Part shown: piece by piece, positions 20,590 to 61,379 of the stretch
Layout of the letters: each line of letters starts with the position of its first letter
Numbering within the stretch: the stretch's first letter is position 1
Source of the DNA: Spirochaetia bacterium
GTDB taxonomy: Bacteria > Spirochaetota > Spirochaetia > UBA9216
Direction of reading: 5' to 3'
DNA length: 64,000 bases
Assembly (NCBI GenBank): GCA_963675665.1
Contig: OY776510.1
Location: 4,864,001-4,928,000 of the forward strand
The notes under the pieces: generated by a model
The model's database searches: none
What the model was told of the DNA's origin: nothing
What the model saw: only the letters and a program-made list of their open reading frames with translations
Program-made: the position numbers and the translations under genes

Positions 20590-21594
20590 CTATTTGATTC
20601 TTGATTCTGTCCGCCATGGATCAGCATTTGTTCCAAGGATCTTTTTTACAGAACTGGTGGCGTTTTCAAGTTTTTCTGCTAATTCATCAGAGATTGTTAC
20701 TGCCATTGCTTCGGCATTTCTCAGCATCTGGCCAGGATTCCTGGCACCTGCTATAACTGCTGTAACTTCAGGTTTGTGAAGTAACCAGGATATCGCCGCA
20801 TCTCCCAATGAGATATCACTTTCTTTACAAATCACTCTTAAATCATCCAGAGCCTTAAATACTTCAAGCTCACAACCGGGTTCGTCATGAACAGTCCCGG
20901 GACGATCTTTTGAATAGAATCTAAGCCTTGCACGTTCTTCACTGACATCTTCCGGTTTGCTGAATTTGCCGGTAAGCAGCCCCTGTGCAAGCGGGCTGTA
21001 TGCAAGAATTCCAATCTGATTCTTCCTGCAGCATGCAGCTATCTCATATTCTACTGCCCTGAAGAGCAGACTGTAACATAACTGATTGGAGACTATTTCA
21101 GTAGATTCAATAGCTTCGGAAAGCTGACTACAACCGTGATTACAAACACCAATAGCACGTACCTTTCCTGCTGTTTTCAGTTGCTCCATCATTTTCAGGG
21201 TTTCTTCAATAGAGATCTCCGGATTAAGCCAATGCGTCTGCAATAAATCAATATAGTCAGTCTTCAGGCGCCTGAGAGACCCTTCGACAGCTTCAGTTAC
21301 CCCGGCAGCCGACATATGAGTGGTCCATATCTTGGTGGCAATAACTGCATTATTTCTTCGGCCTTCAAGTCCTTTACCTAAAACCTCTTCTGAATATCCT
21401 TCAGAATAGAATTCGGCAGTATCAAAAGTATTAATCCCGCAATCTATTGCTGCGCTGATTGTGTCAATTGATTCTTTCTCCTCCTGAGCACCCCAGGTAT
21501 ATCCGCCGCCTATTCCCCAACATCCCATGATGATGGGTGATACTTTTACATCGCTGTTGCCGAGCTTGATTAATCCATTCTTTATTGTCTTCAT
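20590..21594 (-). CDS. Aldo/keto reductase
   Basis: GINTFDTAEFY, SLRRLKTDYIDL, GKVRAIGVCN and AYSPLAQGLLTGK. Confidence 0.95.
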   Translation of the reverse strand: MKTIKNGLIKLGNSDVKVSPIIMGCWGIGGGYTWGAQEEKESIDTISAAIDCGINTFDTAEFYSEGYSEEVLGKGLEGRRNNAVIATKIWTTHMSAAGVTEAVEGSLRRLKTDYIDLLQTHWLNPEISIEETLKMMEQLKTAGKVRAIGVCNHGCSQLSEAIESTEIVSNQLCYSLLFRAVEYEIAACCRKNQIGILAYSPLAQGLLTGKFSKPEDVSEERARLRFYSKDRPGTVHDEPGCELEVFKALDDLRVICKESDISLGDAAISWLLHKPEVTAVIAGARNPGQMLRNAEAMAVTISDELAEKLENATSSVKKILGTNADPWRTESRIK

Positions 21595-21655
21595 TTATTC
21601 TCCTATAAAAAGTCAACCACAAGCTAAAAATATAAGCTTATGATCTGGTCGGATA

Positions 21656-22768
21656 TCAACCGACCATTACAGCTTCCCATGCTGCTGCCTGCATTTCCCT
21701 GTATTCTTTTCTAAAAGCCATTTTCATCGGATCAAACGGCTCTCTGGTTTTTAAAATTGTATATACCAAAGTGCTCATCTTGCGGGCGGCAGCTATTACA
21801 CTCTTACCCGAGCCTTTCTGCTTCTTCATCGCTGCATACTTCGTCATTATTCGGTACGTCCCGGTCTTCTTTTGCATACGAACCATTCCCATCACCATCT
21901 GTACGAAGGCTGTCCTCAGTTCTACAGGCCCACGCTTTGTTATATGTCCATGATGTATTGTCATATTTGAGTTCTGCACCCATGGCACAAGCCCGGCGTT
22001 TGCTGCATATTTCTTCGCACTATCATATCTGCCGATATCGTCTGTATAGGCTCTTACTGTTGCTGCTGTTATTAGACCCACGCCTGGTATTGTCTGCAGA
22101 AGCTCAACATCTTCATCGTCCTCCACAAGCTCAGCCAAAACCTTTTCAAGCTGCTTGACTTGCGATGCCTGATTATCTATCATATCCAGTAACGGTATTA
22201 CCGTTTTGGCAGCGCTTCCGTAAAAGTCGTGGTCCTCGAGACCGTTCAGGATTCGCTGCCTTTCTTTTTTACTCTGCAGCTGTCCGCGTTTGGTCTCTAT
22301 TCCATAACCAAGTAATAAGCCATGCACCTGGTTCTTTAACGACACAACAGATTTTACCAGTATCGACCTGGATTTCAGCACCCTTCGAATATCCTCACTC
22401 TCTTGGGAACATAATATCGATTCAGGCAGCATGTCTTTCTCAAGAAACTCCGCCAGGGTGCGTGCATCATGTTTGTCTGTCTTTTTTACAGATTCATTCA
22501 CTACCTTGAATTTCAAAGTATTCACTACAACCACTTCGACTCCAGCCTTTAACAGTTTATTGCGGAAATAACGGGCATTCCCGGTTGTTTCCACCGCTGC
22601 TCTCAACTCATATTCCTCTTCACAATATTCATCCAGCATTTTCAGAAATGCTCCATAACCATTTCCGCTGGTCGGATACATTCCCAATTGATCAATTTTT
22701 CGGTCTTCACTTAAAAGGCATACTGTAAACTGCGTTTTGTGAAGATCCACGCCAATACTCATCTTCAT
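21656..22768 (-). CDS. IS110 family transposase/recombinase (DEDD)
   Basis: IGVDLHK, AVETTG, KKTDKHDA, LLQTIPGVG and GLVP...NS......GHITKRG. Confidence 0.96.
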   Translation of the reverse strand: MKMSIGVDLHKTQFTVCLLSEDRKIDQLGMYPTSGNGYGAFLKMLDEYCEEEYELRAAVETTGNARYFRNKLLKAGVEVVVVNTLKFKVVNESVKKTDKHDARTLAEFLEKDMLPESILCSQESEDIRRVLKSRSILVKSVVSLKNQVHGLLLGYGIETKRGQLQSKKERQRILNGLEDHDFYGSAAKTVIPLLDMIDNQASQVKQLEKVLAELVEDDEDVELLQTIPGVGLITAATVRAYTDDIGRYDSAKKYAANAGLVPWVQNSNMTIHHGHITKRGPVELRTAFVQMVMGMVRMQKKTGTYRIMTKYAAMKKQKGSGKSVIAAARKMSTLVYTILKTREPFDPMKMAFRKEYREMQAAAWEAVMVG

Positions 22769-22803
22769 GTTCTATCTCCAATAGTTTGAAGCAGTGCCTA
22801 TAC

Positions 22804-22956
22804 GGTGAATTGTTCCATTCTCCTATCCGGTCTCGCAGACCATTGAATGTTTCGGTTACGGCTCTTCAATCTCCTAAACGGTCTCGCGGACCAGTAAAAA
22901 TGTCGAACAGTAACCTTACTGCCTCAATTAAAGTTAAGGCAGTATATCAATTCACC
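22804..22956 (-). ncRNA. Putative bridge/seek RNA of the IS110 element
   Basis: Closing stem GGTGAATTG/CAATTCACC, a 5' hairpin TACTGCCT/AGGCAGTA, and two paralogous internal loops built around GGTC(C/T)GCGAGACC hairpins with TAGGAGA arms matching the element junctions. Confidence 0.65.
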
Positions 22957-22988
22957 AGCTCATGAAGACTTTTTATCATTCCTCCTAA

Positions 22989-23726
22989 TTAGTCAAACAG
23001 CAATCCGCCATTTAAATCTATAATTTCTCCGGTAATAAATCCGGATAATTCGTCCGCAAGAAATCTTACGACATGAGCGAATTCTTCCGGTTCACAAAAT
23101 CTGTGTACCGGTATTTTATTCAGAACCTGTTGCTTTTCTTCCTCAGTCAACTGCTCTGTAACCATTGGGGTTTTTATATATGCCGGTGAAATACCGTTTA
23201 CAGTAATTCCTTCGCCGGCAAGTTCCGCAGCTAATGAAAAAGTCAGCGAAGAAACACCTCCCTTGGAAGTTGAATAAGCTGTTCCGGCAGTTATTCCACC
23301 GCTCTTGGCGGCAAGTGAAGATGTATTTATTATTCTTCCCCACCCTTTTCTTTTCATTCCCGGTATTACAGCTTTTGCTGTAAAGAACATTCCGTTAAGA
23401 TTGATATTAATAACCTGCTCCCATTCTGAAACTTCTGTCGTCTGAGATTTGTTTTTTGACAGGATCCCGGCATTATTCACAAGAATATCAATGTCCCCCC
23501 ATTTCTTTTCAATAAATTGTACAGCTTCATCAACATCAGCGGCGTTGCTTACATCGAACGCTACAGCCATAGTTTTCCCGTTATAATCGGCGGCCAGTGC
23601 ATCCAGCTTCCGCTGATCGATATCCGCCATTACTACGCGACAACCTTCATTGACTAACATCTCCGTCACCGCCTTTCCCATAATTCCGGCTGCTCCTGTA
23701 ACCAGTGCCGTTTTGTCTCCAATCAT
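22989..23726 (-). CDS. SDR family oxidoreductase (FabG-like)
   Basis: TGAAGIMG, DILVNNAG, YSTSK and ITGEIIDLNGG. Confidence 0.93.
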   Translation of the reverse strand: MIGDKTALVTGAAGIMGKAVTEMLVNEGCRVVMADIDQRKLDALAADYNGKTMAVAFDVSNAADVDEAVQFIEKKWGDIDILVNNAGILSKNKSQTTEVSEWEQVININLNGMFFTAKAVIPGMKRKGWGRIINTSSLAAKSGGITAGTAYSTSKGGVSSLTFSLAAELAGEGITVNGISPAYIKTPMVTEQLTEEEKQQVLNKIPVHRFCEPEEFAHVVRFLADELSGFITGEIIDLNGGLLFD

Positions 23727-59237: not shown

Positions 59238-60377
59238 CTACCTATTCCATGCTTCAGTGTAAATGTTAAAAGCGTCTTCCTGGGTAACTTCGCGGGGATT
59301 GTTAACCAGGAGCCTTGTCTGATCCATGACCGAAACCGACATCGGTTTGATTGCATCTTCAGGAATATCTATCGCCTTGAGATTGCGCGGCAGCTTTACA
59401 TCTTCGCAGAGCTTTTCAACCTCGGATATACAATCCTGCCAGTCTGCCCCCTGTCTGCCGGTCATTATCTCGGCAACATGTCCGAAACGGTCTTTCATCG
59501 CAGCAGCATTAAACTTGATTATAACAGGCAGCATAAGACTGTTCGCCATTCCGTGAGGAACATGAAACATTCCGCCCAAAGGATAGGCAAACGCATGAAC
59601 TGCGGTTACACCTGCGTTGGCAAACGCAATTCCGGCCAAAAGGCTTCCAAGAAGCATCTTCTCACGAGCTTCCATATCGGAACCGTTGTTGTACGCAGTA
59701 CGAATATTCTGTGAGATAAGCTCTATCGCTTTCACAGCCACTGCATCACTATAGTCATTTGCATTAGCGGAAGTATAAGCCTCAACACAGTGACACAGGG
59801 CATCCATTCCTGTGGGCGCTGTTATATGAGGAGGAAGCCCCACTGTCAGCTCCGGATCAAGAAACGCAAATTTCGGCATAATATAAGCTGAACCGAACCC
59901 TTTTTTCGTCTCATTTTCAAGATCAGAAAGGATTGACAGGTATGTAACCTCAGAGCCTGTTCCTGCAGTAGTAGGTATTGCAAAAATAGGCAAGCCGGGT
60001 TTTGGAAGAATCCCGACACCGAGATAATTTCTGATACTTCCTTCATTACCGACAAGCGCGGCAGCGACCTTCGCTGAATCAATTGAAGATCCGCCTCCCA
60101 GACCGATTACCGCCTGAGCACCGCTTTTGCGTGCTTTATCCGCTATGCTGTCTACAAGCTGCATTGACGGATCAGGCTTTACCTCATCAATCAGAATTAC
60201 TTCCTTGCCTGCATCCTTCAGGATTTTTTCAACCCTTGTATAAATACCAACTTTTATTATTCCGGGGTCGGTAACTACCATGACCTTGTCTGCACCTACA
60301 GAATCAAGCGCTGCAGGAATTTCAGCTATTGAATTTTTTCCAATTTTAACTTGCGGCACCGGCCATATATTCATCAT
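59238..60377 (-). CDS. Iron-containing alcohol dehydrogenase
   Basis: GGGSSIDSAK, PTTAGTGSE, GMDAL.H..E, H...YPLG and HG.AN. Confidence 0.93.
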   Translation of the reverse strand: MMNIWPVPQVKIGKNSIAEIPAALDSVGADKVMVVTDPGIIKVGIYTRVEKILKDAGKEVILIDEVKPDPSMQLVDSIADKARKSGAQAVIGLGGGSSIDSAKVAAALVGNEGSIRNYLGVGILPKPGLPIFAIPTTAGTGSEVTYLSILSDLENETKKGFGSAYIMPKFAFLDPELTVGLPPHITAPTGMDALCHCVEAYTSANANDYSDAVAVKAIELISQNIRTAYNNGSDMEAREKMLLGSLLAGIAFANAGVTAVHAFAYPLGGMFHVPHGMANSLMLPVIIKFNAAAMKDRFGHVAEIMTGRQGADWQDCISEVEKLCEDVKLPRNLKAIDIPEDAIKPMSVSVMDQTRLLVNNPREVTQEDAFNIYTEAWNR

Positions 60378-60386
60378 ATCTGTCTC

Positions 60387-61238
60387 CTAATTATAATTAT
60401 AAAAACCCTTTCCGGATTTTCTTCCAAGGTATCCTGCAGCAACCATCTTGCGAAGCAGGGGATAAGGTCTGTATTTGGGATCACCGAAATCGTTATACAG
60501 TACTTCCATTATCTTTAAACAGACATCGAGCCCAATCAAATCAGCAAGCGCCAGAGGGCCTATCGGGTGATTTGCGCCGAGCTTCATTATTTCATCAATT
60601 GCCGCAGCATCTGCAAGTCCGTCGGCAAGACAGCCTACACCTTCGTTTATCATCGGAATCAGAACCCTGTTAAGCACAAAACCGGGCGCATCCTGAACCA
60701 TTACGGCAGTTTTGCCTATCTTTTCTGAAACTTCCTTAACTGCGTCAATTACTTCCTGTCTGGTCTGCAGCGCAGCTATAACCTCAATGAGTTTCATTAC
60801 CGGAACCGGGTTCATAAAATGCATACCGATCATTCTGTCGGGATTTGTTGCGTATGTGGCGATCTCGGTTACTGATATTGTAGAAGTATTTGTTGCAAGA
60901 ATGCAAATATCGGACACAATCCCCGACAGTGTTTCAAATACGGTTTTTTTAATTTCCCTGTCTTCAGCAACTGCCTCAATTACCATATCGCATTCTTTAA
61001 AATCATTTACATCGGTTGATGTACTGATTTTGTCGAGGGCGGCTTTTTTTGCGTCTTCAGTTATTCTTTCCTTCGAAACCATTCTGTCGAGATTTTTCGT
61101 AACAGTTGCAACCGCCTTGTCGACAGTCTCCTGTCTTCTTGATACAAGCTGCACGTTATAACCGGCCTGCGCGCAAACCTGAACTATACCGTTACCCATT
61201 GTCCCGCCGCCGTAAACTCCTATTGTCTTAATATCCAT
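60387..61238 (-). CDS. hbd: 3-hydroxybutyryl-CoA dehydrogenase
   Basis: [38 protein letters not shown] and GRKSGKGFY. Confidence 0.95.
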
Positions 61239-61314
61239 TATTTACTCCTGAAAATTTATTCTCACCGTAAACGGCAATAATACTATCCCCGCCATGGAAG
61301 GCGGATAAGCTTGA

Positions 61315-61379
61315 TGAAGTTTGGAGAACTTATCTCCAAACTTCAGAAACGGTTTAAACATGGATGTTTAAACCGTTTC
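61315..61379. repeat. Two abutting perfect inverted repeats between thiolase and hbd
   Basis: TGAAGTTTGGAGA/TCTCCAAACTTCA (13 bp) and GAAACGGTTTAAACA/TGTTTAAACCGTTTC (15 bp). Confidence 0.85.

Follow-up and report, generated by a model that had tools for sequence, protein, structure and literature searches.

A putative bridge-RNA insertion sequence of the IS110 family aimed at translation-start regions in a Spirochaetia genome

How can an insertion sequence (IS) land inside a ribosome-binding site (RBS) and leave the gene behind it with a Shine-Dalgarno (SD) sequence, and what leads it there? This question is raised by an element lying between a short-chain dehydrogenase (SDR) gene and an aldo/keto reductase (AKR) gene on the minus strand of a 64,000-nucleotide (nt) stretch of a Spirochaetia bacterium genome (assembly GCA_963675665.1, contig OY776510.1, positions 4,864,001 to 4,928,000; hereafter the window, whose own numbering is used for its features). 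In this work, we found that the element is very probably an IS110-family insertion sequence, active or very recently active, that carries a bridge RNA upstream of its recombinase gene and is programmed for the translation-start regions of genes. Copy number, insertion sites, covariation of the RNA fold, covariation between guides and flanks, and the occupancy of predicted sites were each demonstrated by computation. A first-pass annotation of the window had proposed an IS110/IS1111-type element with a two-loop bridge RNA, an SD sequence in both loops, and RBSs as its targets; both junction strings, the SDR stop, the AKR start, and the two paralogous loops lie on the minus strand where it had placed them. 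Its bounds for the element, 21597-22988, have to be moved inward to 21600-22981, and the element with its terminal features is as follows:

21600..22981, minus strand: whole element, 1,382 bp, with the right-hand AGGAG counted as the element's; 15 copies
22982..22986, minus strand: left AGGAG, formerly the SD sequence of the AKR gene and now leading into the element's left end; present in all 15 copies
22977..22981, minus strand: GAATG, first 5 nt of the left end and putative donor segment paired by the donor-loop 5' arm; complementary to CAUUC
22967..22976, minus strand: left sub-terminal inverted repeat ATAAAAAGTC, containing a -10-like TAAAAA preceded by TG-A; perfect 10-bp repeat with 21605-21614
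21605..21616, minus strand: TTGACT (-35-like, 21611-21616) overlapping the right sub-terminal inverted repeat GACTTTTTAT (21605-21614)
21621..21639, minus strand: weak A+T-rich hairpin in the right end, directly before the -35, read from the sequence
21600..21604, minus strand: right AGGAG, the present SD sequence of the AKR gene; 15 of 15 copies end so

We found 15 full copies of the element on the single 5.15-Mb contig of the source genome, all of them 1,382 bp long and differing only at one C/T site (element position 1335). When the flanks of these copies were aligned, the constant sequence ended in all 15 with ...TTTTTATAGGAG and the bases beyond varied by copy; left flanks were variable up to AGGAG, right flanks were variable directly after AGGAG, and AGGAG stood on both flanks in 15/15 copies, with no other repeat. 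With the ends fixed by this alignment, the shared segment is AGGAG and not the previously proposed GAAT, which shows at both junctions only because the spacer to the right of the window copy begins AAT. The exact crossover point inside AGGAG is unreadable from the sequence. In contigs of public DNA runs with the same organism label, the depth of the IS interior is ~15-18x that of the flanks, which fits 15 copies, and identical junctions were present in three samples (contigs of four DNA runs).

The positions of these copies are uniform. All 15 lie inside AGGAG and are oriented as the downstream gene, the ATG of which follows at 5 nt (two copies), 6 nt (12 copies), or 7 nt (one copy). These ATGs open reading frames (ORFs) of 93-729 amino acids, and Pfam families were recognized in 13 of the 15 products, e.g., phosphoglucose isomerase (PGI), dihydrolipoyl dehydrogenase, 2-keto-3-deoxy-6-phosphogluconate (KDPG) aldolase, and a pyridoxal phosphate (PLP) decarboxylase. 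In a wider set of homologues (described below), an ATG stands 2-9 nt past AGGAG in 100 of 105 distinct insertions, with spacers of 6 nt in 55, 5 nt in 15, and 7 nt in 16; the AGGAG-N-ATG consensus foreseen by the first-pass annotation was thus seen when the flanks of copies and homologues were aligned. Because the right end terminates in TATAGGAG, every insertion leaves the host gene an SD sequence at its native spacing, as can be read from the sequence, and the proposal that the downstream gene retains AGGAG holds.

Excising the 15 copies by script left a genome with 6,564 AGGAG sites. Sites reading TAGGAG were occupied in 13/135 cases when an ATG stood 5-7 nt downstream (N5-7), compared to 0/631 when it did not (p=1e-10); for the ATG-less TAGGAG sites outside long ORFs, the count was 0/128 (p=1.9e-4). 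Among sites with an ATG at N5-7, those with T at position -5, the base directly before AGGAG, were occupied in 13/135 cases versus 2/705 for the other bases (p=2e-9). Occupancy was 7/28 versus 0/36 once TT at -8/-7 and A-richness of the spacer were matched (p=0.002).

The protein is that of an IS110-family recombinase:

21656..22768, minus strand: transposase/recombinase gene, 370 amino acids; both IS110 Pfam domains

Its ORF matches PF01548 (E=9e-18, 64.9 bits) and PF02371 (E=1e-17, 64.3 bits), and the nearest solved structures are those of ISCro4 (9t56, E=7e-16) and IS621 (8wt6, E=6e-15). Alignment with ISCro4 places the catalytic D, E, D, D and Ser residues, together with the G-L-x-P-x4-S motif, at corresponding positions. 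Together with the DEDD RuvC-like and Ser-bearing Tnp domains, the insertion is site-specific and duplication is limited to the shared core, as in the IS110 family. Non-coding sequence amounts to ~213 nt upstream of the transposase gene versus 56 nt downstream, with ~190 nt between the left 10-bp repeat and the transposase ORF.

The upstream region has the properties of a structured RNA. A 217-nt segment folds better than 200/200 shuffles (z=-4.1). For the fold alignment, we kept 28 of the 41 upstream regions that are distinct, namely that of the window and 27 of 40 others, leaving out two near-duplicates, three that are decayed or internally duplicated, and eight of a distant Lentisphaeria/Clostridia type. 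The consensus comprises an outer stem, a basal stem of the target loop, and two hairpins; 14 of its 28 pairs have compensatory changes, which support the fold. Paired cells reach 96.2% versus 89.1% in shuffles (0/500 reach the observed value) and 19-42% with the partners slid. Both loops follow one plan: closing C-A/U-G pairs, a 5' arm, a hairpin running from U-stem to stem-G, one linker base, a 3' arm ending in AGGAG, and A-N-U-G. An RNA is presumably made from this region, the parts of which are as follows:

22948..22956, minus strand: 5' strand of the outer stem, paired with 22804-22812; helix 1, 5/6 pairs changed on both sides among 28 homologues
22919..22942, minus strand: RNA 5' stem-loop from the minimum-free-energy fold; a hairpin at the same place in homologues, by eye
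22894..22903, minus strand: target loop 5' arm A-CAUUUUU-AC; CAU and 4 nt are complementary to ATG and the 4 nt preceding it
22879..22893, minus strand: target-loop hairpin U-GGUC ... GACC-G; helix 4, 2/5 pairs changed on both sides, 97% of cells paired
22867..22878, minus strand: target loop 3' arm U-UUAGG-AG-AUUG; UUAGGAG is the same as the SD strand and so pairs with the opposite strand
22843..22850, minus strand: donor loop 5' arm A-CAUUC-AA; changes in step with GAATG of the left end
22828..22842, minus strand: donor-loop hairpin; helix 5, 3/4 pairs changed on both sides, 100% of cells paired
22816..22827, minus strand: donor loop 3' arm G-AUAGG-AG-AAUG; AUAGGAG is identical to the final 7 nt of the right end

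A search of Rfam matched no bridge RNA family to the upstream region; its five matches were at chance level (E >=0.18) and uninformative on function.

If these loops are guides, their arms should change together with the DNA that they face. The covariation set comprised 80 species-genome loci, one plasmid copy, and 80 metagenome loci (161 in total), to which the 15 copies of the window genome were added; pattern matching parsed 113/161 loci, and the other 48 (distant-type, truncated, or decayed) were excluded. For the donor loop, the 5' arm and the first five bases of the left end are perfectly complementary in 58 of 66 distinct elements. Seven compensated pair types occur (GAATG/CAUUC, GTATG/CAUAC, GAACG/CGUUC, GCACG/CGUGC, GCATG/CAUGC, GAGTG/CACUC, and GTACG/CGUAC), and 0/20,000 shuffles matched the covariation observed in the first 28 elements. 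The donor 3' arm, AUAGGAG, and the right end are both invariant in 28 aligned homologues; they share a 7-nt match, and covariation is uninformative there.

The target 3' arm covaries with the left flank (101 events in 61 guide groups). Arm and flank match at -6 in 0.84 of events versus 0.35 under the null and at -5 in 0.95 versus 0.75, and 0/20,000 shuffles equal either value. Position -7 shows no signal (0.19 vs 0.25), as would be expected if this base is a linker like U73 of the IS621 RNA. Three multi-copy genomes illustrate the reprogramming:

Syntrophales metagenome-assembled genome (MAG): target arm CAA-AGGAG; A at -5 in 9/9 and A at -6 in 8/9
Oceanispirochaeta MAG: target arm UAC-AGGAG; C at -5 in 9/10 and A at -6 in 9/10
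Marispirochaeta: target arm UUA-AGGAG; A at -5 in 6/6 and T at -6 in 6/6

Two single loci have unusual target arms. At locus L072, the target arm is GUUGAGAG and the left junction reads TAGAG instead of AGGAG, which may be a natural retargeting away from the SD core. At L074, the target 3' arm contains a 12-nt internal duplication.

The target 5' arm was compared with the right flank in 105 events from 42 groups. One register of six stands out (p=0.0006; Bonferroni ~0.004), and its single cells give p=0.01 for n4/+3, p<0.001 for n3/+4 and for n2/+5, and p=0.07 for n1/+6; the last two bases of the arm show no covariation in these 105 events. This register sets the invariant CAU opposite +7 to +9, i.e., the ATG at a 6-nt spacer, in agreement with the earlier suggestion that the CAU arm faces the start codon. 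Two other schemes were rejected. A 5'-arm register in which CU pairs with the core, and which predicts a 5-nt spacer, was dropped because the final U pairs with the post-hairpin G in 27/28 homologues; it is also contradicted by the variable preceding base and the predominance of 6-nt spacers. Handshake guides like those of IS621 fail in that the two bases after AGGAG in the 3' arms match neither cognate nor non-cognate DNA. These two bases are read instead as part of the loop-closing stem (CA/UG, 27/28 each).

Both arms of the window element together predict the target TTAGGAG, two free bases, and AAAAATG. Scanning both strands of the copy-free genome (~10 million positions), we found two perfect matches, and both are occupied. 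Sorted by the number of matching positions, the sites were distributed as follows:

14/14 matches: 2 sites, 2 occupied
13/14 matches: 16 sites, 0 occupied
12/14 matches: 105 sites, 1 occupied
11/14 matches: 696 sites, 9 occupied
10/14 matches: 5,400 sites, 2 occupied
9/14 matches: 30,389 sites, 1 occupied

An unoccupied look-alike, TAATTAGGAG-ACAGAT-ATG at 60375-60393 on the minus strand, is present in the window as the first-pass annotation had pointed out; it is one of 122 unoccupied TAGGAG-N5-7-ATG sites.

These results suggest the following mechanism. The donor loop would hold both ends of the element, its 3' arm AUAGG-AG matching the right end and its 5' arm CAUUC pairing with the left-end GAATG. 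The target loop would read two blocks with two unread bases between them: the 3' arm UUAGG-AG reads N-N-AGGAG, the SD sequence, and the 5' arm, CAU plus 4 nt, reads ATG plus the four bases preceding it. Strand exchange would then occur within the AGGAG common to donor and target, with the place of cleavage inferred; by analogy with IS621, the core may be the last AG (CT on the other strand), which lies 7-8 nt past the hairpin-closing G, a distance equal to that of A79/G80 from G72 in IS621. As the ends stand in the sequence, TTGACT would be 17 nt before the TAAAAA of the left end if the two ends abut, and a circle joining them would probably create a junction promoter (TTGACT, 17 nt, TG-A-TAAAAA). 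Every insertion would also recreate a near-cognate target, and elements could stack beside earlier insertions and beside ~113-bp derivatives that resemble MITEs (miniature inverted-repeat transposable elements).

These ~113-bp units were found upstream of IS targets. Their consensus opens with AGGAG, GAATGATAAAA, and CTTC.ATG, like the left end of the IS, and ends in TTTTATAGGAG, like its right end. A strict regular expression found only nine units and was replaced by BLAST and a profile search, which gave 82 unit matches in the genome; 62 of these reach the right end, and 54 of the 62 end in AGGAG. The right end is followed by an ATG opening an ORF of at least 60 amino acids in 47/62 units, by a full IS copy in five, and by another unit in three. 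Five of the 15 IS copies were therefore inserted at an SD sequence supplied by an earlier unit. Examples of unit loci are L010 (891912-896300), L014 (4927145-4931532), C1:2973058-2973371, and C1:1652333-1652891, and a partial unit is found in the window:

61285..61367, minus strand: partial ~113-bp unit

The units are probably non-autonomous derivatives of the element, judging from the shared ends. They could also be a repeat of host 5' untranslated regions (UTRs) that the element targets or that served as the source of its ends, and several properties would suit this origin: unlike the identical IS copies, the units are old and vary in sequence (65-100% identity), the three hairpins of their interior are without counterpart in the IS, and no unit was caught as a presence/absence difference. 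However, targeting alone accounts just for the likeness of the right end, whereas the unit consensus has both ends in common with the IS. The right ends that form the AGGAG before an ATG and ORF, and the head-to-tail arrays of three to five units sharing AGGAG, also speak for derivatives, and we regard a host repeat as unlikely.

Several observations weigh against the guide-RNA reading of the element itself. Many of the homologues were taken from contigs of MAGs or metagenomes, and since they are related to each other, the shuffles make them look more independent than they are. In a first and smaller set of 19 families, covariation of the 5' arm did not reach significance (best register p=0.013), with every single cell lost on correction for multiple testing, and the present result rests on the enlarged set with six registers tried. 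The 5' arms also have different registers relative to the core, with a gap of 2 nt in the target loop and none in the donor loop, an arrangement found in no solved structure. Regarding occupancy, 0/16 of the sites with 13/14 matches are occupied; nine of these mismatch at -5 and two have TTG for ATG, but at least four look good and are still empty, which indicates that the genome is not saturated. Moreover, 10 of the 15 local targets read TATAGGAG, with A at -6 as in the element's own right end, and not the TTAGGAG of the guide, and occupancy is independent of the base at -6 (10/45 for TATAGGAG versus 3/15 for TTAGGAG). Five of these ten targets are right ends of MITE-like units; the other five are unexplained mismatches, perhaps simple ones at a tolerated position. 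Insertions of close relatives whose arm is likewise UUU are at TT-AGGAG in 3/3 metagenome loci (L107, L108, and L130). Finally, neither a circle junction nor an empty site was found in the contigs of the four DNA runs, in which rare forms are dropped, such that this is no evidence either way. The empty site of the AKR copy was not found among 40 related genomes, in which the AKR region has no DNA-level orthologue (five chance-sized matches).

Could the link to RBSs arise without guidance by RNA? The protein may recognize AGGAG, or insertions elsewhere may have been lost by selection, with the AGGAG of the loops serving a structural or regulatory role. AGGAG is invariant in loops and targets, so that covariation cannot probe it; in addition, long ORFs, in which selection could act against insertions, hold 503 of the 631 unoccupied TAGGAG sites, and T-richness at -8, a position outside the guide, is enriched at occupied sites (11/13 vs 55/122, p=0.008). 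However, in 61 guide groups the bases beside AGGAG change together with the loop arm, the near-identity of the 15 copies leaves little time for selection, the 128 TAGGAG sites outside long ORFs are all empty, and the perfect matches predicted by the guide are both occupied. Targeting without an RNA guide therefore appears very improbable.

The exact model of the first-pass annotation, in which crossover occurs at GAAT, the donor loop matches the circle junction over 11 nt, and an outward -35 drives the downstream gene, is hardly tenable: its GAAT at both junctions is met by right-junction bases after AGGAG that vary among the 15 copies; its circle junction is off by one G and the real right-end match is 7 nt (ATAGGAG), the 11-nt match being an accident of the window copy, as the AAUG/AGUG after AGGAG does not track changed left ends (it is unchanged in aligned homologues with GCACG or GTATG); and a -10 placed 17 nt after the right-end TTGACT would cover the ATG of the host gene, which makes this -35 useless for the downstream gene, and the right end yielded no call of an outward promoter-like site.

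Returning to the RNA-guided element, its position in the window involves the following features:

21592..21599, minus strand: right half of the target, 5-nt spacer and ATG of the AKR gene
20590-21594, minus strand: AKR gene, ATG at 21594
22989..23726, minus strand: upstream SDR gene, TAA at 22989; stop 2 nt before the SD sequence

Since the SDR stop lies 2 nt before the SD sequence, the insertion is inside an operon. The same applies to several other copies, where the stop of the upstream gene lies 2-17 nt before the SD sequence. The sole terminator-like call is on the plus strand inside the AKR gene, with none within the element; the right-end hairpin, whose place is taken in homologues by a hairpin of other sequence, received no terminator call. 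PGI is encoded by a single gene in the genome, and this gene stands intact directly behind a MITE-like unit and a full IS copy (locus L013, C1:242915-245836), and dozens of intact genes lie behind old units. Downstream genes would therefore be transcribed by read-through from the element, for which these intact genes are indirect support, and the "safe harbour" strategy proposed for it appears plausible on the same indirect grounds. On the upstream side, the final codons of the SDR gene spell TTGACT (22991-22996, minus strand), 15 nt before the TG-A-TAAAAA of the left end, which could give the integrated copy a weak promoter of its own.

Relatives with 53-88% identity have the same ends and SD sites and occur on contigs labelled Spirochaetota, Desulfobacterota, Chloroflexota, Bacteroidota, and a candidate-phylum bin, although the binning of MAGs is possibly wrong for some of them. 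At 33-35% identity, relatives from Lentisphaeria, Victivallales, and Clostridia bins (labelled Lentisphaerota and Clostridia) have retained a right end of the form ...TCATAGGAG and a target arm containing AGGAG. A relative with 32.5% identity on the Tardibacter conjugative plasmid pHSL4 (L105) has TAGGAG as its end, with the start codon ATG of the next gene 7 nt further on; its transposase stop TAG itself starts this terminal TAGGAG, leaving almost no right end. In Rhizobium johnstonii plasmid pRL11 (L106, 31% identity), the left side starts AGGAG-GTGGCATGAAAG, and GGAG-bearing arms (..CAAGGAGAAUGG and ..CAUUGGAGACUGG) apparently lie downstream of the gene for the transposase, the IS1111-type position. 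We consider it possible, if somewhat short of probable, that the element represents a multi-phylum bridge-RNA clade hard-wired to the near-universal start signal of translation, with a split loop, an SD-mimicking right end, stacking, and derivatives acting as leaders of at least 47 genes.

If this is true, insertion keeps the host gene translatable and rebuilds the target, and elements and their ~113-bp derivatives stack in 5' UTRs. The known landing of some IS110 elements between RBS and start codon (e.g., IS900) is now accounted for by guide-RNA pairing, an account backed by natural reprogramming in dozens of variants. The layout, unseen in IS621, has a shared core of 5 nt, a target guide with a gap, and ends of the IS1111 type together with an RNA encoded upstream, and it bears on the design rules of bridge recombinases; a target found in most bacteria would explain the close relatives across bins with different phylum labels. 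If the short derivatives are mobile, they would be a source of ready-made SD-bearing 5' leaders able to rewire expression.

The closest described system for the RNA is IS621. According to two reports (Durrant 2024, PMC11208160; Hiraizumi 2024, PMC11208158), the IS621 RNA consists of a stem, the left target guide (LTG), a stem-loop, and the right target guide (RTG), with linkers U59 and G72-U73 and with the RTG ending in A79-G80. On the basis of these descriptions, our element resembles IS621 in having a DEDD plus Ser recombinase with the same two Pfam domains and an RNA encoded upstream, in the order of a 5' stem-loop and two pseudo-symmetric internal loops (each with stem, arm, hairpin, and arm), in 3' arms that end in AG at +7/+8 after the post-hairpin G (A79/G80 after G72), and in a -35-like sequence in the right end and a -10-like one in the left end. 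It differs in that protein similarity is remote (E ~1e-15, mostly the C-terminal domain) and, as far as IS621 is described there, in that CT is carried by the strand antisense to the transposase gene, the segment common to donor and target has 5 nt (AGGAG) and not two, the 5' arms leave the core uncovered with the target 5' arm pairing after a 2-nt gap, and the sub-terminal inverted repeat extends over 10 bp in place of 2-3 bp. 

The ends are closer to those of the IS1111 group, for which the accessible descriptions give sub-terminal inverted repeats of 7-17 bp and terminal extensions of 7 + 3 bp (PMC11208160, PMC11187229). Like IS1111-type elements with a seekRNA, e.g., ISEc11, as presented in Siddiquee 2024 (PMC11187229), our element has perfect sub-terminal repeats (10 bp, with 11-13 bp being usual), a distance of 10 bp from repeat to repeat once the ends are joined, which matches the 7 + 3 bp extensions, and a guide segment that pairs with the transposase-sense strand first. 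Unlike them, its RNA-bearing non-coding region is upstream of the gene and not downstream; ISMtsp17 and "a few" others are named in the same account as upstream-RNA exceptions. The first-pass annotation had noted that long sub-terminal inverted repeats coexist here with an upstream non-coding region, and this is indeed the case. The long upstream region is a trait of the IS110 group, and the lack of a sub-terminal repeat, or its limitation to 2-3 bp, is a trait of that group that is absent. By the rule given for the IS110 group in the portions of PMC11187229 and PMC11208158 available to us, the first guide segment pairs with the bottom strand and the second with the top strand in the transposase frame. 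This order is not followed, as the transposase-sense strand has its complement in the 5' arm and its own sequence in the 3' arm.

For the target, the closest precedent is IS900, an IS110-family element of Mycobacterium avium subsp. paratuberculosis, and RBS targeting by this family is therefore already known. Its target motif, as given in the available text, is CATGNNNNNNTCTCCTT (CATG-N6-TCTCCTT; PMC8141618), i.e., the reverse complement of SD-N6-(C)ATG; 6 nt is also the commonest spacing here (12/15 local sites and 55/105 overall). In that account, the hed ORF of IS900 lies on the strand opposite the transposase and needs an outside RBS (PMC8141618). From hed and the motif as written, the IS900 transposase is apparently antiparallel to the target gene, whereas in our element the two are co-oriented in 15/15 copies. 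The literature searched contained nothing linking the IS900 target to RNA guide loops, and no link of bridge or seek RNA loops to SD sequences, no such clade, split guide, or MITEs were described in it; the target tables in the supplements of the Durrant and Siddiquee 2024 papers were outside this search and may hold SD-like targets. Within that scope, the split SD-plus-start-codon guide, the mixed IS1111/IS110 layout, the cross-phylum clade, and ~80 MITE-like derivatives supplying the SD sequence of at least 47 genes appear to be new.

Two minor observations concern rearranged ends. In a contig of runs X1-X3 that comes from elsewhere in the same organism, ~36 nt of the left end are followed by six other letters and ~20 nt of the right end (four mismatches), a joint that corresponds to window positions 21619/22949 and would be a ~70-bp deletion derivative of the element; a strict pattern search did not find this derivative in the genome. 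At locus L046, the transposase stop is followed by tandem right ends, namely, a 29-nt solo fragment ending in TATAGGAG and then a full right end, as repeated insertion at the rebuilt target might leave behind.

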